From assembly GCA_965228895.1 (NCBI GenBank), contig OZ245842.1, positions 2,816,001 to 2,880,000 on the forward strand: a stretch of DNA of 64,000 bases, given 5' to 3'. The notes beneath the pieces were generated by a model, which was not told where the DNA came from, made no database searches, and worked only from the letters and a program-made list of their open reading frames with translations. The DNA comes from Alphaproteobacteria bacterium (lineage in GTDB: Bacteria; Pseudomonadota; Alphaproteobacteria; SP197). Shown here piece after piece: positions 7,814 through 20,534 of this stretch; within the stretch, counting starts at the first letter, position 1; every line of letters begins with the position of its first letter. The position numbers and the translations under genes are program-made.

Positions 7814-8800
7814 TCAGCCCCCTGAACCTGCCCAACGAAATTCGCCGTTCGCCAGCAACGCGGCCGCCTGTTCGAAGACATAGGCATGGCGGCGCGCGAT
7901 CAAGGCGACATCGTCGCCATAGCCGCCACCGATCACACAGGCAACCGGTACCCGGCGTTGCGCGCAGGTCTTGAGAACAACTCGTTCGCGGGCCTCAAGA
8001 CCGCCATCGCTTAGCGCCAGCTTGCCGAGCCGGTCGTCGGCATGGGCATCGATGCCGGCGACATAGATAACGAGATCCGGCGCAACACGATCGATCAGGG
8101 GCCCTAGTTGCTCGTGCAAGACCGCCAAATAGGCATCGTCGCCGGTCCCAGGCTCAAGCGCGATGTCCAGATCGCCTACCTGCTTGCGCACCGGAAAGTT
8201 GACGCCGCAATGGACGGAAAAGGTGAAAACACTGTCGTCGCCGACAAACGCCGCCGCCGTGCCGTCGCCTTGATGCACATCAAGGTCGACGACCAACACC
8301 TGGCGGACCAGTCCTTCGCGCTGCATCATGCGTGCGGCGACCGCGACATCGTTGAAGACACAAAAACCGGCACCGTAGCCTGGAAACGCATGATGGCTGC
8401 CACCGGCGGTGTTGCAGGCGACGCCGACTTTAAGCGCCGCCCGTGCCGTTATGATGGTGCCCGCAACCGCACGGCGCGAGCGCTGCGCCATTTCCGGGGT
8501 CACCGGGACGCCGATGCGCCGCAGGGCCTGCTCGTCCAAAGTCTGGCTCAACACCGCCTCGACATAGCCGGGTTCGTGAACCAGACCGAGCACACGGCGC
8601 GACACCAGACCGGGTTTGAGCACGGTTTCCGGGCTCGCCAGGCCCAGTTCTGTGACCTTTTCCAGCAACAGCGCGAACTTGGTCATGGGAAAGCGATGCC
8701 CCGCAGGAAGCGGCGCGACATAGTCTTTATGGGCAACAACCGGCAGAAAACGCCGCTTCACATTCGTGTCAAATGCCACCAAGACTGCATCCCCTGTCAT
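7814..8800 (-). CDS. Histone deacetylase family protein
   Basis: HRFPM.KF, GGSHHA, GFCVFND, DLDVHQGDG, D.LGKL, GGGY. Confidence 0.9.
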   Translation of the reverse strand: MTGDAVLVAFDTNVKRRFLPVVAHKDYVAPLPAGHRFPMTKFALLLEKVTELGLASPETVLKPGLVSRRVLGLVHEPGYVEAVLSQTLDEQALRRIGVPVTPEMAQRSRRAVAGTIITARAALKVGVACNTAGGSHHAFPGYGAGFCVFNDVAVAARMMQREGLVRQVLVVDLDVHQGDGTAAAFVGDDSVFTFSVHCGVNFPVRKQVGDLDIALEPGTGDDAYLAVLHEQLGPLIDRVAPDLVIYVAGIDAHADDRLGKLALSDGGLEARERVVLKTCAQRRVPVACVIGGGYGDDVALIARRHAYVFEQAAALLANGEFRWAGSGG

Positions 8801-8939
8801 CGGTTCCGCGTAATAGAATAGAACCAGGAACCGGCGCGCCCGGCTTCGGCCACAGTCGTGCCGTTTCCTCGCGCCAAGCCGACAGGTCCCTGTTGATGGG
8901 GCGCCGACGTGCCAGACTATCTAGCTGGAGAAAGACGCG

Positions 8940-9419
8940 ATGACCAAACCGTTTGACGTTGTTGCCGGGGCGCTTGCGATTTTCCTGTTCGCCGCGGGGT
9001 CCGCATTTGCCGCGGGCGGTTCCAGTAACGACACCAACTCCTATGACGACACGCCAGCGGGTTCGGCGCTCAAGTCGGGGATGGACGCCGTCAATGACGA
9101 GGATTGGCCGCTGGCAATCCAGGAATTCACGATCGCAACCCAAGAAGACCCCAACAGCGCCGACGCGTTCAACATGCTGGCCTACAGCTATCGTCAGTCG
9201 GGCGACCTGGACAACGCATTCGCCAACTACGACAAGGCGCTTGCCCTCGATCCCGACCATGAAGACGCCCACGAGTACCTCGGCGAGGCCTACCTGGCAG
9301 CAGGCGATCTGGCCAAAGCGGAAGAACAGCTGGCCATCCTTGACGACATCTGCTGGCTGGGCTGCGACGCCTATGACGAGCTGGAAGAGGCCATTTCGAT
9401 CTACAAGGCCAGCAACTAG
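8940..9419 (+). CDS. Exported TPR-repeat protein
   Basis: Signal peptide, ADAFNMLAYSYR / AHEYLGEAYL TPR helices, C-terminal CxxxC. Confidence 0.8.
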   Translation: MTKPFDVVAGALAIFLFAAGSAFAAGGSSNDTNSYDDTPAGSALKSGMDAVNDEDWPLAIQEFTIATQEDPNSADAFNMLAYSYRQSGDLDNAFANYDKALALDPDHEDAHEYLGEAYLAAGDLAKAEEQLAILDDICWLGCDAYDELEEAISIYKASN

Positions 9420-9487
9420 CCTGCCTATTGTCCTTTGCCCGTTTGACGCCCTACGATCGATCATGACGGTCGCTACGGGGACAAGAC

Positions 9488-10357
9488 ATGGCGGTGCTTT
9501 CTGACGATCAAGTCGCTCAATTCAAACGCGACGGCTACGTTATCGTCCGTCAGTTGGTCACCGGCGCACCGCTTGAGGCGGCACGCCGGCAATTGGCGGC
9601 ATGGGTCGACGAAAGCAAGTCCCAGTCAAGCAACTGGGGTGAATGCCTTGACGGCAAAGCACGCTTCGATTTGGCGGACGGCCACCGCGCCGACCGCCCG
9701 CTGCTTCGACGCATCTCCAATCCAGCGGAAATCTCGCCGGTCATCAAAGACATCCTGTTCGACAGTGCGATACCCGATGCCATCACCGATCTGATTGGCC
9801 CGGATATCAAATTCCACCATTGCAAAATCAACGTAAAACTGCCGAGCTCGCCGACCTATGTCGGTTGGCACCAGGACCATGCCTACGATCCGCACACCAA
9901 CGACGATGTCGTCGTCGCTCTCCTGATGCTGGATGACGTGACGGAAGACATGGGACCGCTGATGGTCGTGCCTGGTTCCCACAAGACGCCTCTTAGTCTC
10001 TTCAAAGACGGCCGCTATACGGGAGCCATCGGCGAAGAACATCACAGCGCTTTCGAGCAGGCCGCCCTACCGATGACCGGCCGTGCCGGCGATGTCATCT
10101 TGCAGCATACCTGGATGGTTCATGGCGGCGGCTCCAACACCACCAGCAATCCGCGCGCGATGCTGATCTGTGATTACACGGCAGCCGACGCCTTCCCGCT
10201 GACGCCGCCCGCCATGCCTAGTGCCCAGTTCGGCGCGATTGTGCGTGGTCAGCCGACCCGTTTTGCGCGATTGAAAGAGACGGTGATTGAAATGCCCGAG
10301 GCTTACACCGACGACTCCTTCTTTGGGCTGCAAGGGCAAAAGGCAGCCGCCGAATAG
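9488..10357 (+). CDS. Phytanoyl-CoA dioxygenase (PhyH) family Fe(II)/2OG dioxygenase
   Basis: F.RDGY, WHQD, VVPGSH, HGGGSN...R. Confidence 0.9.
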   Translation: MAVLSDDQVAQFKRDGYVIVRQLVTGAPLEAARRQLAAWVDESKSQSSNWGECLDGKARFDLADGHRADRPLLRRISNPAEISPVIKDILFDSAIPDAITDLIGPDIKFHHCKINVKLPSSPTYVGWHQDHAYDPHTNDDVVVALLMLDDVTEDMGPLMVVPGSHKTPLSLFKDGRYTGAIGEEHHSAFEQAALPMTGRAGDVILQHTWMVHGGGSNTTSNPRAMLICDYTAADAFPLTPPAMPSAQFGAIVRGQPTRFARLKETVIEMPEAYTDDSFFGLQGQKAAAE

Positions 10358-10487
10358 CGGCTTGCCGCGGCCGCCCCTCGGCATCATCGCCAATCTGTCC
10401 AAATCGCACGGCGATGCAGTCATAATGGGTCAGCTAAGCCCGTCCAATTGATGTAGAGCGGATTCCCGTGATTAGATGGGGCACTGC

Positions 10488-10627
10488 TTAGAGCAGGTCC
10501 CGTTTCGATGAAATCGCTTCGCGACGCCATCAAAATAGGTGAATCTGCTCTACACATAGATAGAGAGCGGATTCACGTGGTTAGGTGGGAACGTCCATCG
10601 GTTCCACCCAACCACGATCCGCTCTAG
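10488..10627. repeat. 140-bp palindromic element, copy 2 (short remnant of the right arm at ~10454-10480)
   Basis: TTAGAGCAGGTCC...GATCCGCTCTAG. Confidence 0.9.
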
Positions 10628-10639
10628 GGGGGTAGTTTC

Positions 10640-11083
10640 ATGTTTAAGAAGATCGTCGTGCCGGTGGACGGCTCGGAGCATGCCTTGGAGGCAGTCGACG
10701 CCGCGGTCGATTTGGCCGGCAAGTACGATTCTGAGATCTATCTGGTCAATGTGAGTCGGCGTGCCAAGTACACCGGCGACATCGACAGGTTCGCACAGAG
10801 CGAGTACCGCCAGGCCGGCTCGTCCTTCGTCACTGACGAACTGGCGAAGAACATTCTGGAGAACGCGCGGACCCGGGCACGACAGGCAGGCAAGGCCGAC
10901 CCCAAGTTCGAACTGCGCGAAGGCAATGTCGCTCGTTCGATTGTCGACTTCGCCAAGGAAGTCAAAGCCGACTGCATCGTCATGGGCAGCCGCGGCCTGG
11001 GCGATATCGACAGCATGCTGCTGGGCAGTGTCTCGCACAAGGTGTCGAGCCTGGCGTCCTGCACAGTCGTCGTCGTTCGCTGA
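10640..11083 (+). CDS. Universal stress protein
   Basis: MFKKIVVPVDGS, IVMGSRG...LLGSVSHKV. Confidence 0.93.
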   Translation: MFKKIVVPVDGSEHALEAVDAAVDLAGKYDSEIYLVNVSRRAKYTGDIDRFAQSEYRQAGSSFVTDELAKNILENARTRARQAGKADPKFELREGNVARSIVDFAKEVKADCIVMGSRGLGDIDSMLLGSVSHKVSSLASCTVVVVR

Positions 11084-11113
11084 CGCCACCTCGTTGCCTG
11101 TAGTCCGCTCATC

Positions 11114-11653
11114 ATGGCGTACCCGGAACCCGTCATCATGCCCTATCACGGCACGTGGCCGACACTGCATCCCCGTTCCCTGGTGGTGCCCGGCGCGGCG
11201 GTCATCGGTGACGTCACCCTGGCCGAAGAGGCGAGTGTCTGGTTCAACGCCACGGTGCGCGGCGACGATGGTCCGATCACCATTGGCGCACGCAGCAACG
11301 TGCAGGATAACGCCATCATCCACGTCTCGACGGAGTACCCGACGATCATCGGCGACGACGTCACGATTGGCCATGCCGTCCATCTGCACGCCTGCCACCT
11401 GCAAAGCGGTTGCCTGATCGGTAGCGGCGCGATTGTTCTAGACGGCGCCACGGTCGAGACCGGCGCCCAGGTCGCCGCCGGCGCACTTGTCTCCCCCGGC
11501 AAGACGGTGAAGGCCGGCGAACTGTGGGCCGGGGTGCCCGCGAAAAAGCTCCGCGACCTCTCCGACGAAGAGGCCGGTTGGATCGTCGAGAACGCACGCT
11601 GGTACGTGAAGGAAGTCCACGAGTACCGCGAGGAACTCGGCCAGACGGACTGA
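11114..11653 (+). CDS. Gamma carbonic anhydrase family protein
   Basis: Hexapeptide repeats, RGD, NVQDN..IH, IGH..LH. Confidence 0.9.
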   Translation: MAYPEPVIMPYHGTWPTLHPRSLVVPGAAVIGDVTLAEEASVWFNATVRGDDGPITIGARSNVQDNAIIHVSTEYPTIIGDDVTIGHAVHLHACHLQSGCLIGSGAIVLDGATVETGAQVAAGALVSPGKTVKAGELWAGVPAKKLRDLSDEEAGWIVENARWYVKEVHEYREELGQTD

Positions 11654-11718
11654 GCCGTGGCAGCTTCGGCCGTCTCCCTGCTAGCATGCCGACACATGCT
11701 CTTGGGGAGGAACGGAAG

Positions 11719-12471
11719 ATGTCGAACTTCAAAGGTTTGAAGGTTCTTGTGACCGGCTCGACACGCGGCATTGGCAAGGCGACCGTGCGGGCGTTTCGCG
11801 ACGCAGGCGCCATAGTCGCGGTCAACGGACGCAAACCTGAAGCCGTCGCGGCCACGATCGACGAGCTGGGCGGTGAGCGCCTGATCGCGGCACCCGGTGA
11901 CGTCGCCACGGCCGCGGCCTGCGACCAACTCGTCGGCGATGCCGTCACCTCGCTCGGCGGCCTCGACATCCTCGTCAACAACGCCGGCGTCTTCAGCGAA
12001 GGCCCGGTCGATGATGTCGGTGAAGACACTTATGACTGGCTGATGGATATCAACGTCAAGGGCGTCTTCTTCTGCAGCAAGGCGGCGCTACCTTCCTTGC
12101 GCGAAAGCAACGGATCGATCGTCAACACGGCATCGGAATCGGGCCTGGTCGGCAACGCGAACATGGCGCTCTATTGCGCCAGCAAAGGCGCGGTCGCCAA
12201 CCTGACGCGCGCCATGGCGTTCGATCTGGCGCCGGCGGTTCGCGTCAACGCGGTCTGCCCCGGCGGCGTCATGACCGACATGGTGACCGACGGGCAAGAC
12301 ATCACAGCCGACGACCCGTCGCTCGACGAGCTCAAGAACTATGCGCCCATGAAACGTATCGGCCTGCCGGAAGAGATTGCCGACGCGATCCTCTATCTGG
12401 CCAACCCCGCATCAAGGTTCACGACAGGCGCCATGCTGTCGGTCGACGGCGGCTCCACCGCCTGCCGCTAA
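11719..12471 (+). CDS. SDR family oxidoreductase
   Basis: TGSTRGIG, NNAG, YCASK; ATG at 11719 after GGAGG. Confidence 0.9.
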   Translation: MSNFKGLKVLVTGSTRGIGKATVRAFRDAGAIVAVNGRKPEAVAATIDELGGERLIAAPGDVATAAACDQLVGDAVTSLGGLDILVNNAGVFSEGPVDDVGEDTYDWLMDINVKGVFFCSKAALPSLRESNGSIVNTASESGLVGNANMALYCASKGAVANLTRAMAFDLAPAVRVNAVCPGGVMTDMVTDGQDITADDPSLDELKNYAPMKRIGLPEEIADAILYLANPASRFTTGAMLSVDGGSTACR

Positions 12472-12564
12472 GATTTGGCAAAAAAGATGACAAGCTGATG
12501 TCAGCGGCTCATGCTGTTCCCCGTGGGCAATCTTCACGGGTTAACCGTGGATCGGGAGGACATC

Positions 12565-13686
12565 ATGAACCGCGTTAAAATGATTGACCGGCTGTCCCAA
12601 GGCAGGCTCAGCCGGCGCGAGGTCAAACAGTTGGCAGCGGCGGCCGGCGTCGTCGGTGTGACGGCGCCCGTCATAAACCGCCCGGCAAGGGCAGCAAGCG
12701 GTGAGGATCTGACCTATTTCACCTGGGGCGGATTCGAAGACCCGAACCTGTTCCCGACGTTTGTCAGCAGGTACGGCGACCCTGTCGTCACCTTCTATGG
12801 CGACGAGTACGAAGCGATCGAAAAGCTGCGTGCCGGCTATGAGGCCGATGTCGTCTGTCCGTGCATCGATGTCATGCCGAACTGGATGCGTGTTGGCCTC
12901 AAGCCGATCGACGAAAGCAGGTTGGAGTATCTGGACGACACCTTCGAGTCGATCCGGAGTCCCGAGGCGGCGTTCGACAAGGGCGAGCGCTACTATGTGC
13001 CGACCTATTACGGCTTCACCTCGTTCGTCTACCGCACGGACTTGACGGACATCACACCGGAAACGGAATCGTGGAAACTGTTCTTCGACGACACGTACGC
13101 CGGGCGCATCGCGATCTGGGATAGCACCGATGCGGTCATCCCGGTCGCGTCGCTTGCTGCTGGTGATCTGGAAGATCCCTATCGTCCGTCGGCCGAACGG
13201 CTGGAAGAGGTCGAGGCGTTAATGCGCAAGCAACGCGACCTCGTGCGTTTCTATTGGGGCGAGCAGACGTCGGCCCTGGAAGCGTTCGTGTCCGGCGAGG
13301 TCGTCTTGAGCTATGTCTGGTCGGCGGCCATTCCGCCCCTGCTTGAATCGGGCATTCCGTTCAAGTGGGCGCAACCGCAGGAAGGTCTCATCAGCTATGT
13401 CTGCGGTCTGTCGCGCGCCAACAAGGAAGGCACAGACGAAGCGTTGGTCTACGACTTCATCAACGCCAGCATGTCACCGGAAGCCGGCGCCTACATGATC
13501 GAGGTCTTTGCGCTCGGTGCCGCCAACAAGTCGTCCTACGACTTGGTTGATGCCGATGTTCTGGAGCGAAACGGCCTGTCGACACCGGAGGAGTCACTGG
13601 CGGGATCGCACACCTATCAGTTCGTCCCGGTCGATTTGAAGCAGGAGCATATTGCAATCTTCGACGAGATTCGCGCCGGTTTCTAA
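12565..13686 (+). CDS. PotD/PotF-like ABC substrate-binding protein (Tat-like leader)
   Basis: SRRE leader, FTWGGF, YAGRIAIWD, PQEG..YVCG. Confidence 0.85.
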   Translation: MNRVKMIDRLSQGRLSRREVKQLAAAAGVVGVTAPVINRPARAASGEDLTYFTWGGFEDPNLFPTFVSRYGDPVVTFYGDEYEAIEKLRAGYEADVVCPCIDVMPNWMRVGLKPIDESRLEYLDDTFESIRSPEAAFDKGERYYVPTYYGFTSFVYRTDLTDITPETESWKLFFDDTYAGRIAIWDSTDAVIPVASLAAGDLEDPYRPSAERLEEVEALMRKQRDLVRFYWGEQTSALEAFVSGEVVLSYVWSAAIPPLLESGIPFKWAQPQEGLISYVCGLSRANKEGTDEALVYDFINASMSPEAGAYMIEVFALGAANKSSYDLVDADVLERNGLSTPEESLAGSHTYQFVPVDLKQEHIAIFDEIRAGF

Positions 13687-13768: not shown

Positions 13769-14116
13769 TCAGCGCGCGGCGATGCAGGCGATCTCGACCT
13801 TCAGGTCGGGTGCGGCCAATGCCGCCTCGACCGTGGCGCGGCAGGGCTTGTTGTGCGCGTCGACCCACTCGTCCCACACCTCGTTCATCTTCGCCCACTT
13901 GCCGATATCGGTGAGCCAGATATTGACCATCAGAAGCTTCGACTTGTCACTGCCGCACAGCGCCAGGGACCGGTCGATCTCCGCCAGGATCTGTCGGGTC
14001 TGCCCCCGGACGCCCTGACTGGTGTCGGTCGCGGTTTTGCCGGAAACGTAAACGGTGTCGCCGTGAACAATCGCGCCGCAGAAGAATTGGCCGGGTTCGT
14101 GACGAATGATGGTCAT
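13769..14116 (-). CDS. RidA family protein (YoaB-like)
   Basis: VYVSG, MNEVWDEW, PCRATVEA, VEI. Confidence 0.9.
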   Translation of the reverse strand: MTIIRHEPGQFFCGAIVHGDTVYVSGKTATDTSQGVRGQTRQILAEIDRSLALCGSDKSKLLMVNIWLTDIGKWAKMNEVWDEWVDAHNKPCRATVEAALAAPDLKVEIACIAAR

Positions 14117-14186: not shown

Positions 14187-14531
14187 TTAGATGGCCGCTG
14201 TCAGCGTGACCTCGATGCCGAAATCGAGCGCCAGGCCCGCCTCGACGGTCGCGCGGCACGGCTTGCTGTCGGAGTCGATCCATTCCAGCCAGACTTTGTT
14301 CATCTGCTGGAAGGTCGCCATGTCCTGCAGATAGACGTTGACCATCAAGACCTTGGACTTATGGCTGCCGCATGCGCCGAGGATGCGGTCGATCTCGACG
14401 AACACCTGACGCGACTGGCCTTCGACATCCTGGCTGGTATCGGCGGCGACTTGGCCCGAAAGATAGACGGTGTCGCCGTGGATCGAGGCGGCGCTGTACC
14501 AGTCCTTGGGCTCGATACGTTTAACGGTCAT
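14187..14531 (-). CDS. RidA family protein (tandem paralogue)
   Basis: VYLSGQVA, MNKVW, PCRATVEA. Confidence 0.9.
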   Translation of the reverse strand: MTVKRIEPKDWYSAASIHGDTVYLSGQVAADTSQDVEGQSRQVFVEIDRILGACGSHKSKVLMVNVYLQDMATFQQMNKVWLEWIDSDSKPCRATVEAGLALDFGIEVTLTAAI

Positions 14532-14668
14532 GAATGCTCTCCTTATTGAAGCCGGGCGCGCGGATCCTAACAGACACGACGGCGCAACAAAGCCCAGCCT
14601 TTGCCCCTTTTCTCGCGAGACGCAAGGCCCTACGGTTTGTCGGTACGATAACCGGAAGGAATCATCCC

Positions 14669-16099
14669 GTGCCCCTGCCCTCTGACGGATTGATCATGGT
14701 GGTCAAACGCGACTGCCCGACCTGCCAGTTGATCGTTCCGGTCGCTCGCGAGCTGGCCGAGCGCGGCATGCTGGCCGGACTCTACAGCCAGGACGATCCC
14801 GGCTTTCCCGAGGCGCTGGACGTCCTTGATGACGGCGAGCTCGAAGCCTCGTTTCATCTGGATATCGACATCGTGCCGACGCTGGTGCGCCGGGAGGCCG
14901 GCCAGGAAACAGCACGCGCCATCGGTTGGCACCGCGGCGAATGGCAGAACCTGACCGGCGTCAATGATCTGGGCGCCGACCTCCCGGACGAACGGCCGGG
15001 CTGCGGCTCGCTCTCGGTCGGCCCCGGCATGGCGGAAGAGCTTCAAGCCCGTTTCGGCGAGACCGGGCTCAAGGCCCGCGAAGTCCCGGTCGATTTTCCC
15101 GAAGACCCGATCGAGCAGATGTTCGACCGCGGCTGGACCGACGGCCTGCCCGTCGTGCCGCCGACACCGGCCCGCGTGCTGCGCATGCTGGACGGCACAT
15201 CACGGTCGCCCGACGACTTGGTCGGTAAGATCCCACCGGGCTTCGACGACTGCACGGTCGAAAAAGCCGCCATCAACGCGGTGATGGCCGGCTGCCGGCC
15301 GGACTATTTTCCAGTCGTGCTGGCCGCCCTTGATGCCGCTATGGACCCCGACTTCGCGTGGAGCGGCCTGTTGTCGACGACCATGGGCGCAGGGGTCGCC
15401 GTGGTCGTCAACGGTCCGATCGCCAAACGCATCGGCATGAACACCGGCATCAACGTGCTGGGCCACGGCAATCGCGCCAACGCGACGATCGCGCGTGCGC
15501 TGCTGCTGACGGCGATCAATGTCGGCGGCGCGGTGCCCGGCGGTGTCGACCGGTCGACGCTCGGCCATCCCGGCAAACACGGGCTCGCCTTTGCCGAAGA
15601 CGAAAGCGATCCCGATTGGCAGCCGCTTGCCTTCTCGCGCGGCTTCGAACCGGGCAAATCCGCCGTCACCGTGTTCGGCTTCTGCGGCACCAGCATCAAC
15701 AACGACGAGAAGGCGCGCGATGGCGAGGGCCTGACCCGGAGCCTGGCGCGCAGCCTCAACAGTTTCTATGACCCGCGTCTGACCGGCGGTGGGATCGGCG
15801 CCATGCTCGTCTTGTCGCCGGAATACTGGCGCGTCTACAAGGCGAGCGGCTGGGACCGCAGCCGGATCGAAGCCGGGCTTCACGAAGCGACAAAACGCAC
15901 CGAGGACATGATAGGGAACGACATCGTCGCCGCCCATGACGGCCCCGGCGACACGAGCGGCCTAACGGCGAAGTTTGCGCCGGGTGACCTCATCGTCGTA
16001 CGCGCCGGTGGCGCGGCGGGCCTGTTCTCGACTATCATCCAGGGCTGGGCCAGCGGCCCGACCGGCAGCCAGCCCGTGACCAGGGAGGTTATCCCATGA
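14669..16099 (+). CDS. Uncharacterised protein: thioredoxin-like CPTC domain + GWTDGLPVVPPT domain (UGSC partner)
   Basis: VKRDCPTC, RPGCGS, GWTDGLPVVPPT, NAVMAGC, GNRANATIARA; GTG start at 14669 after GGAAGGA preferred to track start 14534. Confidence 0.75.
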   Translation: MPLPSDGLIMVVKRDCPTCQLIVPVARELAERGMLAGLYSQDDPGFPEALDVLDDGELEASFHLDIDIVPTLVRREAGQETARAIGWHRGEWQNLTGVNDLGADLPDERPGCGSLSVGPGMAEELQARFGETGLKAREVPVDFPEDPIEQMFDRGWTDGLPVVPPTPARVLRMLDGTSRSPDDLVGKIPPGFDDCTVEKAAINAVMAGCRPDYFPVVLAALDAAMDPDFAWSGLLSTTMGAGVAVVVNGPIAKRIGMNTGINVLGHGNRANATIARALLLTAINVGGAVPGGVDRSTLGHPGKHGLAFAEDESDPDWQPLAFSRGFEPGKSAVTVFGFCGTSINNDEKARDGEGLTRSLARSLNSFYDPRLTGGGIGAMLVLSPEYWRVYKASGWDRSRIEAGLHEATKRTEDMIGNDIVAAHDGPGDTSGLTAKFAPGDLIVVRAGGAAGLFSTIIQGWASGPTGSQPVTREVIP

Positions 16100-16623
16100 C
16101 CGAAACCACCGTTCTTCTCGATCCGACATCGGAGCGGGCGGGCGCCATGCGGTCGCGGCAAGCGCCGCCGCCGTCGCTCGACGGCCTGACGGTCGGCCTG
16201 CTCGATATCAGCAAGCCGCGCGGCGACGTTTTCCTCGACCGCCTGGAAAGTCTCTTGGGAAATCGAGGCATCACGGTCGAACGCTTCGCCAAGCCGACCG
16301 TCGCGAAGAAAGCGCCGGACGAGGTCATCGCCTCGATTGTCGAACGCTGCGATGTCGTGATTGAGGCGCTGGCCGATTGAGGCTCTTGCACGTCGTGCAG
16401 TCTGCAGGACATGTTGGAACTTGATCGACGCGGCCTCCCCGCCATCGCCGTGTTTTCCGAAGAGTTTGAGTCCGGTGTCATCGCGTGGCGCGAGCTGCAC
16501 GGCTTCGATGCCGGCGCGGTCTATGTGCGCCACCCGATCCAACCGCTGACCGACGACGAGGTGAACGAACGCGCCGACGCGGTGTTCGACACCATCATCG
16601 CGGGTATTACCCGGCCAGCCTAA
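16096..16623 (+). CDS. UGSC-family selenoprotein, 175 aa, Sec at codon 95 (TGA 16378-16380)
   Basis: Track ORFs 16096-16380 and 16411-16623 share a frame; readthrough gives ALAD-U-GSCTSCSLQD; SECIS-like hairpin follows the TGA. Confidence 0.88.
16392..16410 (+). promoter_or_regulatory. Bacterial SECIS-like hairpin
   Basis: GTC-G-TGCA-GTC-TGCA-G-GAC; loop G about 20 nt after the UGA; resembles E. coli fdhF UGCAGGUCUGCA. Confidence 0.75.
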
Positions 16624-16632
16624 GGAACAAGT

Positions 16633-17232
16633 GTGACATTGCGGGTCGTCGGTGCGGGAGTGGGTCGAACGGGGACAGCGTCGTTGAAGTTGGCTTTGGA
16701 ACAGCTGCTCGGCGGCAAGTGCCATCACATGTTCGAGGTGGCAGATAACCGTGACCAGGTTCCGGTCTGGACCGCTGCCGCCAATGGGAATATGCCGGAC
16801 TGGGGACAGTTTCTGAGCGGATACACCGCACTTGTCGATTGGCCTGGTGCATCGTTCTGGCCCGAGTTGAGCAGAGCTTTCCCGCATGCCCTCGTCCTCC
16901 TGTCGGTTCGCGATCCGGAAAGCTGGTACAAAAGCGCGAGCGAATCCATTTTTCTGGACGATCTCGAGGAGGAAACGGACTTCGACGTGATGTGGAGGTC
17001 CATCGTCCGCAACCGCTTCTGCGACGACCTGGGAAGCAAGGAAATGGTCATCGCCGCCATGATTGCCCATAACAAGGCCGTGGAAGCGGCGATACCGGCG
17101 AACCGGCTGCTGCGCTGGCAGGCCGGTGACGGGTGGGAGCCAATATGCGCGGCACTGGGCGTACCGGTTCCCGATGAACCGTTTCCGCACACCAACACAA
17201 AAAAACAGTTTCTCGCGAAAAACGGCCCGTAG
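16633..17232 (+). CDS. Sulfotransferase-like P-loop protein
   Basis: VVGAGVGRTGTASLKLAL, CHHM, VDWP, GWEPIC..LG.PVP..PFP.TN. Confidence 0.85.
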   Translation: MTLRVVGAGVGRTGTASLKLALEQLLGGKCHHMFEVADNRDQVPVWTAAANGNMPDWGQFLSGYTALVDWPGASFWPELSRAFPHALVLLSVRDPESWYKSASESIFLDDLEEETDFDVMWRSIVRNRFCDDLGSKEMVIAAMIAHNKAVEAAIPANRLLRWQAGDGWEPICAALGVPVPDEPFPHTNTKKQFLAKNGP

Positions 17233-17879: not shown

Positions 17880-19043
17880 CTAGAGGGCACCTGGTTTCCG
17901 GTCGGGCTTCACCGATGACGAGCGCACGACGTTGTCGTCGCGCAGCCGCACCGGCTGACGTTTGCGGCCCCAGGTGCCCGGCTGGTGTTCGAAGACGCCG
18001 GCGACGGCCGTGCCGCAACTACCACAATGGCCACCCTGCTGAATGCCCCAATGGGTGAGCTCATACCAGTCGCGGCCGATCAGCGCCGTGCCGCAGTTGG
18101 GACAGGTTGTCGTGTCGCCGTCACGGTCGTGCACGTTACCGGTATAGGCATAACGAACGCCGTTCTCGATCGCGATGCGGCGCGCGCGCGTCAGTGTCGC
18201 CGGCGGCGTGTTGCCCTTATCCAGCATGCGGTAGTCGGGATGAAACGCCGTGAAGTGCATGGGCACATCCGGCCCCAGTTTGTCGACCACCCATCGGGTC
18301 ATGGCGTCGATTTCATCGGCTGAATCGTTTTCGCCGGGGATCAGCAGCGTCGTCAATTCGAACCACACATCGGTCTCGTGCTTGAGATATTCGAGCGTCT
18401 CCAGAACCGGCGCCAGCTCGCCGGCACAGATCTTTTTGTAGAAGCGCTCGGTGAACGCCTTCAGATCGACATTGGCCGCATCCATGGCGGCGAAGAACTC
18501 GGCGCGCGGCTCCGCCGTCACGTAGCCGGCGGTGACCGCGACCGTCTTGACCCCAACCGCGCGGCAGGCCTCTGCCACATCAACCGCGTATTCGTGAAAG
18601 ATGACGGGGTCGTTATAGGTAAAGGCGACCGAACGGCAGCCGAGATCGCGTGCCACGGCGGCGATCTTCTCCGGCGGCGCCTGATCGGCGAGCGTGTCGA
18701 TTTCACGCGACTTCGAGATATCCCAGTTCTGGCAGAACTTGCAGGCGAGATTGCAGCCCGCCGTGCCGAAAGAGAGCACCGGCGTGCCCGGCAAAAAGTG
18801 GTTAAGCGGCTTTTTCTCGATCGGGTCGATGCAATAGCCGCTGGAGCGGCCATAGGTTGTCAGAACGATAGCGCCGTCCTGTGCCTGGCGGACGAAGCAA
18901 AGCCCGCGCTGGCCCTCGTTGAGCTTGCAAAACCGCGGACACAGGTCGCACTGCACGCGACCATCGTCCAGGGCATGCCAATAGCGGCCAGGGAACACGC
19001 CAAACGTGTTCATTTCCCGTGTCTTTTCGGTGGTATCCGACAT
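17880..19043 (-). CDS. amrS: AmmeMemoRadiSam system radical SAM enzyme
   Basis: CDLCPRFC, DPIEKKPLNHF, GCNLACKFCQNWDISK, FHPDY, CPNC; start 19043 or 19013. Confidence 0.93.
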   Translation of the reverse strand: MSDTTEKTREMNTFGVFPGRYWHALDDGRVQCDLCPRFCKLNEGQRGLCFVRQAQDGAIVLTTYGRSSGYCIDPIEKKPLNHFLPGTPVLSFGTAGCNLACKFCQNWDISKSREIDTLADQAPPEKIAAVARDLGCRSVAFTYNDPVIFHEYAVDVAEACRAVGVKTVAVTAGYVTAEPRAEFFAAMDAANVDLKAFTERFYKKICAGELAPVLETLEYLKHETDVWFELTTLLIPGENDSADEIDAMTRWVVDKLGPDVPMHFTAFHPDYRMLDKGNTPPATLTRARRIAIENGVRYAYTGNVHDRDGDTTTCPNCGTALIGRDWYELTHWGIQQGGHCGSCGTAVAGVFEHQPGTWGRKRQPVRLRDDNVVRSSSVKPDRKPGAL

Positions 19044-19142
19044 CCTCACGCTAGGCCGGGCTCGCAACCGGGCTCCGGCCTTCCCACCTAGTATCTTATG
19101 TCTATGTGGGTATTGCCCCGCGCGATGTCATGACGGACGACG

Positions 19143-20534
19143 ATGATGACAGGCATCCGTGAACCCCAGCTTGCCGGCACCTGGTATCCAGGCGACGCCC
19201 AGGCTTTGGGTATGGCGGTTGACGACTATATCGCCAGCGCCGAGACGATGGCGCCGCAACGGCTTGATCGTCTGAAGGCGGTGATCGCGCCGCACGCGGG
19301 TTACCGCTATTCGGGCCCGGTCGCCGGCAGCGCCTATGCCCAGGTCGCAGCCATCGGCGAGCGCATCAACCGCGTCGTCCTGTTCGGACCGTCGCACCAT
19401 GTCGGCTTTCGTGGTCTGGCGGTCAGCGGCGCCGACGCTTTCCGTACGCCACTGGGCACCGTGCCGATCGATCGCGATGCCGTGCGCCATCTGATGAACC
19501 TGCCCTTCGTCCAGCACATGGAAGCCGCCCACGCGCGCGAGCATAGCCTGGAGATCCACCTGCCCTTCCTGCAACGGGCAATCGGCGACTTCTCGCTGGT
19601 GCCTGTCGTCACCGGGGATGCATCGCCCGGCCAAGTCGCCGAGGCGCTGGCGCATCTTTGGGGCGGGCCGGAGACGCTTGTCGTGATCAGCACCGACCTC
19701 ACCCACTTTCTGGACTACGACACCGCGCGCCGCGTCGATGCTGCGACGTCGCTGTCGATTGTCGGCTGCCAGCCTGACGCCATCGGCGACGATCACGCGT
19801 GCGGCCGGGTCGGCTTGAAAGGACTTCTGGAGATCGGCCACCGCCACACCATCGATGTCGATCTCCTGGATCTCAGGAGCTCCGGCGACACCAGCGGCCG
19901 GCGCGATCAGGTGGTCGGCTATGGTTCGTGGGCCGCGATGGATGTGGGCGACCCGGTCACCGATCTTGAGATCATCGCGCTTGGCCACGGCCGCCTGATC
20001 CGGCGGCTTGCAGCGGATGCCATTCGCCATGGCCTGATCACCGGACACGAGCCCGAAGGACTGTGGGACGACGCGCCGCCGGCATTGGCGCGCGACGTCG
20101 CCAGTTTCGTCACGCTGCGCAAAGCCGGTGAGTTACGCGGCTGTATCGGATCGGCCGAGGCGCACCGCCCGCTCGCACAAGACGTCGCCGTGAATGCCTT
20201 TAAATCGGCGTTCCACGACCCACGGTTCCGCCCGCTCGACGAGCGTGAGTTCGACCAACTGGACATCGACATCGCGCTGTTGAGCGAGCCCCAGATCCTG
20301 ACCGTGACCGATGAGGCGGACCTGATCGAGCGGCTCAGGCCCGGCATCGACGGACTGATCCTGGACGACGGGCAGCGCCGCGCCCTTTTTCTGCCGGCCG
20401 TTTGGCAAAACCTTACCGAACCAAGGGACTTTGTGCGCCACCTCAAAGAGAAGGCCGGCTGGAGCGCCAGCGACTGGTCGCCCTCGATAACCGCGCACGC
20501 GTTTCGGGCCGTAAAAATCACCGGAGCCGACTAG
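19143..20534 (+). CDS. amrB: Fused AmmeMemoRadiSam protein B (Memo) and protein A (AMMECR1)
   Basis: PHAGYRYSG, GPSHH, EHSLE, STDLTH, ACG then FVTL...LRGCIG, DPRF. Confidence 0.92.
   Translation: MMTGIREPQLAGTWYPGDAQALGMAVDDYIASAETMAPQRLDRLKAVIAPHAGYRYSGPVAGSAYAQVAAIGERINRVVLFGPSHHVGFRGLAVSGADAFRTPLGTVPIDRDAVRHLMNLPFVQHMEAAHAREHSLEIHLPFLQRAIGDFSLVPVVTGDASPGQVAEALAHLWGGPETLVVISTDLTHFLDYDTARRVDAATSLSIVGCQPDAIGDDHACGRVGLKGLLEIGHRHTIDVDLLDLRSSGDTSGRRDQVVGYGSWAAMDVGDPVTDLEIIALGHGRLIRRLAADAIRHGLITGHEPEGLWDDAPPALARDVASFVTLRKAGELRGCIGSAEAHRPLAQDVAVNAFKSAFHDPRFRPLDEREFDQLDIDIALLSEPQILTVTDEADLIERLRPGIDGLILDDGQRRALFLPAVWQNLTEPRDFVRHLKEKAGWSASDWSPSITAHAFRAVKITGAD

Follow-up and report, generated by a model that had tools for sequence, protein, structure and literature searches.

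A probable UGSC-family selenoprotein gene with an fdhF-like SECIS element and a thioredoxin-domain partner gene in an alphaproteobacterium of the SP197 lineage

The stretch of DNA analysed here (the window) comprises 64,000 nucleotides of an Alphaproteobacteria bacterium of the GTDB lineage SP197 (assembly GCA_965228895.1, contig OZ245842.1, positions 2,816,001 to 2,880,000). At 16096-16623 it almost certainly encodes a selenoprotein of the UGSC family, in which a UGA codon would be read as selenocysteine (Sec, U) under the direction of a selenocysteine insertion sequence (SECIS) placed immediately behind it. The frame opens with an ATG at 16096 and closes with a TAA at 16621-16623, and the TGA at 16378-16380 is its sole interruption. 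Directly after this TGA, and in frame with it, comes GGC TCT TGC ACG TCG TGC, so that translation with TGA as U gives a product of 175 amino acids (aa) reading ...VVIEALAD-U-GSCTSCSLQDM..., with U at residue 95. Translation with table 11 splits the same frame into two open reading frames (ORFs), one of 94 aa (16096-16380) and one of 70 aa (16411-16623). The ATG of the UGSC gene overlaps the TGA stop of the gene upstream as ATGA; this second gene, referred to below as the partner, carries a thioredoxin domain. A preliminary description of the window, made from the sequence letters, had given the same frame, the same TGA, the ALAD-U-GSCTSC context and the 175-aa product, and all of these are borne out by direct reading and translation.

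The read-through product belongs to a family that is already known and curated. With Cys substituted for Sec it scores 138.7 bits (cut-off 125; residues 29-169) with the NCBIfam equivalog model NF041046, "UGSC family (seleno)protein", and 148.1 bits (cut-off 25; residues 7-172) with Pfam PF24696 (UGSC). Both matches span the UGA, so that homology continues across the codon, as the preliminary description had implied. The protein matches the family over its full length and carries, at the family Sec position, U followed by G-S-C within D-U-G-S-C, with the SECIS directly downstream. Residues D94, U/C95, G96 and C98 are conserved both in the alignment of the 11 full-length homologues described below (A1) and in an alignment of 55 sequences (A5). 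No difference of substance from the family was found in the window protein, which is an ordinary member of it; naming the gene is sound annotation rather than discovery. Publications on the family go back to 2007-2008, when it figured as the 'UGSC-containing protein' in the selenoproteome surveys of Zhang and Gladyshev. In their passages on UGSC, a survey of 2007 lists it as a selenoprotein of unknown function (PMC1976440), and a survey of 2008 places it among the most abundant families of the Global Ocean Sampling, with 255 Sec forms against 21 Cys forms and the motif UxxC (PMC2398784). A 2026 review that cites NF041046 describes, in the part concerned, nearly all of the selenoproteins listed with UGSC as largely uncharacterised in function. 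Judged by their titles and relevant passages, the UGSC papers found in a full-text literature search are computational surveys. The preliminary description had spoken of a computationally identified family with no assigned function, and this agrees with the passages on UGSC in PMC1976440, PMC2398784, PMC9312934 and PMC13188914. It had also called the selenoprotein hidden, which holds only in part: gene callers do shorten the gene, as seen in the database entries below, but an NCBI equivalog model names exactly this selenoprotein.

The genome, which is a single contig of 5.53 Mb estimated at 98.7% completeness, contains the full set of genes for Sec incorporation. Genes for selA, selB, tRNA-Sec (selC) and selD lie in one cluster (C1:4488687-4495383), 1.66 Mb from the window, and all score above their cut-offs. 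Related genomes and database homologues point the same way. PF24696 is found in 31 of 61 related genomes, with 38 matches in all; a single TGA is present in 37 of them and no TGA in the remaining one. Among the best 120 homologous proteins in the database, coverage of the query is at least 93% in 11, 86% in one and only 49-54% in 108; the last are gene calls that end at the UGA. Opposite U95, the 11 full-length homologues have Cys (8), Trp (2) or Arg (1), and Cys occupies this position in at least 90% of the sequences in A5. The two Trp residues would reflect a TGA read by another genetic code. G96, S97 and C98, which lie between the UGA and the next ATG (16411), are invariant in A1, and Cys98 is at least 90% conserved in A5. 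Together these observations support the selenoprotein reading of the preliminary description. An iron-sulfur motif of the CxxCxxC type, formed by U95, C98 and C101, was considered and ruled out: position 101 is unconserved in the family, and is Trp in two related loci (L053 and L066).

The hairpin behind the UGA is best described by comparison with the fdhF SECIS of E. coli K-12 (NC_000913.3), with numbering from the U of UGA as 1. The segment GTCGTGCAGTCTGCAGGAC (16392-16410) folds as GUC.UGCA-GUC-UGCA.GAC and starts 14 nt after the UGA; in this arrangement GUCGUGCAGUCUGCAGGAC has three base pairs at its foot, then a G.G mismatch, then a stem of 4 bp (UGCA/UGCA) closed by a GUC loop, all inside an imperfect hairpin extending over 16380-16422. 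Both elements are hairpins within the coding sequence just after the UGA, and both have GUCUGCA at 23-29 and a 4-bp apical stem of UGCA with UGCA. In contrast to fdhF, with a loop of 4 nt (GGUC) and a bulged U17, the window element has a loop of 3 nt (GUC) and a 1x1 mismatch, G18.G30, in whose place 7 of 13 relatives have a G-U pair. Of the features expected of the fdhF type, the G and U at apical positions 23 and 24 are therefore present, and a single bulged U below the apical stem is not. G23 and U24, which we take to be the SelB contacts, are invariant in all 13 of the diverse Sec forms compared. Judged from these similarities, the window SECIS appears to work like that of fdhF without being identical to it. 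An Rfam scan of 16000-16700 at E <= 10 returned no SECIS family, only matches at the level of chance.

The element is conserved among the Sec forms. In the 13 compared, 91.3% of the cells of the 8-pair upper stem are paired, compared with 10.6-51% in slid controls. The hairpin occurs at the same position in all 12 of the other Sec forms folded (-12.6 to -28.5 kcal/mol), while the sole Cys form examined (L063) has no hairpin there, folding into a different structure at -4.3 kcal/mol. The fdhF-like SECIS claimed in the preliminary description is thus supported: all 13 Sec forms have the hairpin and the one Cys form does not. Pair 21-27 changes from C-G to G-C in two of the 13 Sec forms (L053 and L066), a change that also turns Cys101 into Trp, and pair 18-30 is G-U in seven, A-U in one and G.G in five. 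The lower pairs are kept at 80-93% among family-level relatives. Codon choice is restricted in the same region: when only codons whose amino acid is invariant across 26 family-level relatives are considered, a single codon is used at 5 of 7 sites from +4 to +10 after the UGA, versus 2 of 40 elsewhere, and the latter two are codons -2 and -1.

A second selenoprotein gene, PrdB-like, lies directly beside selD (C1:4495497-4496705, minus strand; 402 codons), with an in-frame TGA in the context V-U-P-L-C. Its scores are 33.6 bits with PF07355 and 104 bits with TIGR04483; the second of these falls short of the cut-off of that equivalog. Its SECIS follows the same design as that of the UGSC gene: a stem of 4 bp carries a GUU triloop, which is one base closer to the UGA, and a G.G mismatch lies beneath the stem (z -2.77). 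A strict pattern of the window SECIS design, applied to the whole genome, gave three matches, namely the UGSC gene and two sites without a convincing frame. As a census of the selenoproteome this pattern was dropped because it missed the PrdB-like gene and is too narrow. The ORF upstream of the PrdB-like gene shares its frame and terminates at a TGA immediately ahead of it.

The predicted structure of UGSC departs from what has been assumed in print. An AlphaFold2 model based on 55 sequences (predicted local distance difference test, pLDDT, 95.8) consists of five beta-alpha units, with Sec95 just after strand 3 (87-93), at the start of helix 3 (96-111), and Cys98 one helical turn beyond it. 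No thioredoxin appears among the 50 Foldseek rows or the 50 VIA-align rows obtained with this model, and the matches are to flavodoxin-like or Rossmann-like proteins. The protein is accordingly predicted to adopt a flavodoxin-like alpha/beta fold. A thioredoxin-like fold was proposed for UGSC in a passage of the 2008 survey (PMC2398784), and the model, as a prediction, does not show one. The protein does resemble the thioredoxin-fold selenoproteins (Trx-like, Prx-like and SelW-like, with UxxC or CxxU) in its Sec/Cys motif, in the two-residue spacing and in the position at the start of a helix. It differs from them in its modelled topology of five parallel beta-alpha units; in the present pair of genes the thioredoxin fold is found instead in the N-terminal domain of the partner.

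The partner starts at the GTG at 14669, where all of its homologues begin in the alignment. A thioredoxin fold with C16-P-T-C19 (14714-14725) occupies residues 1-100, and an uncatalogued domain of ~330 residues, here called X, occupies residues ~150-476 and has an invariant Cys209 (15293-15295). More than 7,900 database proteins match the partner; a few of these bear the name "thioredoxin family protein", and no Pfam domain is assigned to any of them. Searches of Pfam and NCBIfam gave no family for X, and at E <= 10 the partner has weak matches to its thioredoxin part alone (TraF, Thioredoxin_2). Sequence and profile searches of the PDB with the partner returned thioredoxins only, and the ESM Atlas returned only the partner's own unnamed clusters. 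Foldseek and VIA-align searches with the whole 476-aa model found no relative of X, but their rows were filled by the thioredoxin domain, so that X was barely probed. Weak Foldseek rows link X to class I fumarate hydratase (probability 0.44-0.63, root-mean-square deviation ~15 A), and nothing in them is firm.

UGSC and X occur together without exception. A homologue of X is directly beside UGSC in 28 of 28 loci of relatives and in all 14 loci of a more diverse group; in this second group, X either carries a thioredoxin domain and lies upstream of UGSC, or lacks this domain and lies on either side. The two may also be joined in one chain. The 561-aa protein P0262 consists of UGSC (residues 8-176) followed by X, the latter with 37% identity to partner residues 152-473 (E = 2e-58), and Sec-containing fused frames are present in two relatives (L053 and L054). 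Nine further long representatives have UGSC at the N-terminus and a remainder without Pfam assignment, having been scanned against Pfam alone. UGSC is therefore always adjacent to X or fused with it, and the association is obligate. The 2008 survey (PMC2398784) also mentions, in its passage on UGSC, fusion to an unnamed domain, 'Unknown_1'. Two other kinds of apparent fusion were rejected. In the 651-aa protein P0248, with UGSC at the C-terminus, arginine- and proline-rich junk interrupts the similarity to the partner, indicating a frameshifted gene call. Where a relative has a long open frame ahead of UGSC, as some do, this is the partner gene read out of frame in GC-rich DNA. In a 274-aa database protein (P0318) a NifU-like match, weak at 26.5 bits versus a cut-off of 27, comes after the UGSC domain and is a possible alternative fusion partner.

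The best overall explanation, and one held with good confidence, is that the gene encodes a SECIS-directed UGSC selenoprotein paired with the thioredoxin/X partner; that the two act as one reductase is proposed less firmly. SelB with Sec-tRNA(Sec) would read codon 95 as Sec, directed by the SECIS hairpin, and the gene would be translationally coupled to the upstream gene for thioredoxin (CPTC) and X. Because Cys98 is one turn beyond Sec95 in the model, the two residues could form a selenenylsulfide. UGSC and X would associate physically as one enzyme, presumably a reductase, in which Sec95 may attack a substrate or a cysteine of the partner, with Cys98 resolving. Electrons would then flow from the cell's thioredoxin reductase to the tethered thioredoxin module, which would recycle the Sec-Cys pair. 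A thioredoxin-driven selenoenzyme is our best guess at the function of UGSC, and the specific form of a thioredoxin-driven two-part reductase is put forward tentatively, at slightly less than an even chance. A broader version, in which UGSC and X make up a widespread thioredoxin-powered two-part selenoenzyme, with X as the catalytic part and a Sec module perhaps sharing ancestry with protein B of glycine and proline reductases, is more tentative still.

Several results weigh against this explanation or limit it. The folding energy of the window hairpin is within the range of shuffled sequences (z -1.3 to -1.7), as is that of the E. coli fdhF SECIS (z -1.56); since folding energy separates neither of them from shuffles, the case for the SECIS rests on comparison. 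Covariation is thin, one pair having changed on both sides: its score is reached by 3 of 500 shuffles, the cell count by 11 of 500 and the pair count by 157 of 500. The p-values for codon choice (Mann-Whitney 5e-5, Fisher 3e-4) are generous, as the interval from +4 to +10 was picked after the alignment had been viewed and the 26 relatives are kin. The whole-partner searches gave no recognisable fold or family for X, which makes the chemistry a guess, and among the 71 ORFs scanned in 12 loci no additional gene turns up repeatedly around the module, so that context gives no hint of the substrate. One alternative is that the TGA is an ordinary stop separating two small unrelated ORFs of 94 and 70 aa, or that it stems from a nonsense mutation or a sequencing error. 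Table 11 yields exactly these ORFs, an ATG is available at 16411, and most database entries of the UGSC family are such halves. Even so, GSCTSCSLQD, the best-conserved segment of the family, is encoded by the 30 nt that separate the TGA from this ATG; of the 38 matches in other genomes, 37 have the same TGA; Cys homologues run through both halves as one chain; and the genome has a complete Sec system, all of which leaves an ordinary stop hardly credible.

The remaining alternatives accept the selenoprotein and concern its role. According to the survey literature, UGSC would be a stand-alone thioredoxin-like thiol oxidoreductase or antioxidant protein, with the upstream gene a mere neighbour. 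The UxxC motif is indeed typical of thiol-disulfide oxidoreductases; given the modelled fold and the constant company of X, this is considered improbable. Somewhat less improbable, though still unlikely, is that UGSC is a distant homologue of the Sec-containing part of GrdB/PrdB and, together with X, carries out reductive C-N or C-S cleavage of a small amino-acid-like substrate. Profile alignment of 55 UGSC with 8 PrdB-like sequences places Sec on Sec over 69 columns (E = 0.0015, in a single comparison), with 'LE.rGvP' falling on 'LEseGi'. Both proteins have UxxC after a beta-strand, depend on a partner and are linked to thioredoxin, and a PrdB-like selenoprotein is encoded in the same genome. 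Set against this, the hhalign probability is only 16.5% for the profiles and 1.1% against a single sequence, none of the 55 UGSC sequences matches PF07355 at E <= 10, and neither a pyruvoyl proprotein of the PrdA/GrdE type nor a second selenoprotein of the GrdA type is seen next to the module. Selenoprotein B (PF07355, TIGR01918, TIGR04483) is moreover longer, at ~240-435 aa versus 175 aa for UGSC, and works with a pyruvoyl proprotein where UGSC has X. On this evidence UGSC and protein B may share ancestry, and protein B of the glycine and D-proline reductases serves as the nearest working analogy for the proposed two-part reductase.

Table 1. Features of the UGSC locus and its surroundings (window positions) and of the Sec incorporation cluster (positions on the genome contig, C1)
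Feature	Position	Strand	Basis or score
Tandem pair of RidA/L-PSP paralogues (55% identity), transcribed divergently from the partner gene	13769-14116 and 14187-14531	-	
Shine-Dalgarno-like GGAAGGA before the partner GTG	14654..14660	+	
Partner gene, 476 aa, GTG start, TGA stop overlapping the UGSC ATG	14669..16099	+	
Shine-Dalgarno-like AGGGAGG, 7 nt 5' of the UGSC ATG	16082..16088	+	Direct reading
Probable UGSC-family selenoprotein gene, 175 codons + TAA, Sec95 and Cys98	16096..16623	+	Frame read, family profiles, AlphaFold2 model
In-frame UGA, probable Sec codon, residue 95	16378..16380	+	Recurrent TGA in relatives, Cys in homologues
Extended SECIS hairpin, lower helices less conserved	16380..16422	+	Minimum-free-energy fold
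Cys98, likely resolving cysteine of U-G-S-C	16387..16389	+	Conserved in alignments A1 and A5
SECIS upper stem-loop: GUC / G.G mismatch / UGCA stem, apical loop G23-U24-C25 at 16400-16402	16392..16410	+	
Sulfotransferase gene (PF17784), 10 nt downstream of UGSC	16633..17232	+	Profile match
selA	C1:4488687-4490039		588 bits
selB	C1:4490066-4491952		450 bits
tRNA-Sec (selC)	C1:4493192-4493282		82.4 bits; ARAGORN tRNA-SeC, anticodon TCA (UCA)
selD	C1:4494490-4495383		280 bits

The genes flanking the pair appear to be local company. The sulfotransferase gene is found downstream in 2 of 28 loci, including that of the window itself, and so is a neighbour at the genus level only, probably outside the UGSC module. 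Of the 14 context loci, 4 have RidA next to the module, with one RidA gene keeping this position in 4 family-level relatives; these loci all come from the same family, and RidA is a neighbour only at that level. In a distant relative (L060; G057:C2:2973000-2989000, ~8083-13327), the UGSC-X pair is within ~1.5 kb of selD-like (AIRS/AIRS_C) and selA genes, and the selenoprotein module is thus beside the Sec machinery. A gene for a family III CoA-transferase is located 0.1-2.5 kb from both UGSC modules of another genome, G041 (L055, 10855-12126; L056, 8637-10427), and was not seen in the other 10 of the 12 loci surveyed. Further along the window, a radical SAM gene (17880-19067, minus strand) is divergent from a Memo-AMMECR1 fusion gene (19143-20534, plus strand). 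The radical SAM / Memo / AMMECR1 trio is known as the AmmeMemoRadiSam system, and the pair looks ordinary and unrelated to the UGSC module.

The window is thus best annotated with one probable selenoprotein gene, its SECIS and a partner gene, rather than with two hypothetical ORFs. UGSC is among the most abundant selenoprotein families of aquatic metagenomes, and its fixed pairing with a thioredoxin-fused domain, together with a predicted fold unlike that assumed in print, offers experimenters a concrete starting point. If the proposed thioredoxin-powered, two-part selenoenzyme is correct, one of the most abundant aquatic selenoproteins would gain a defined partner and a testable reaction scheme.

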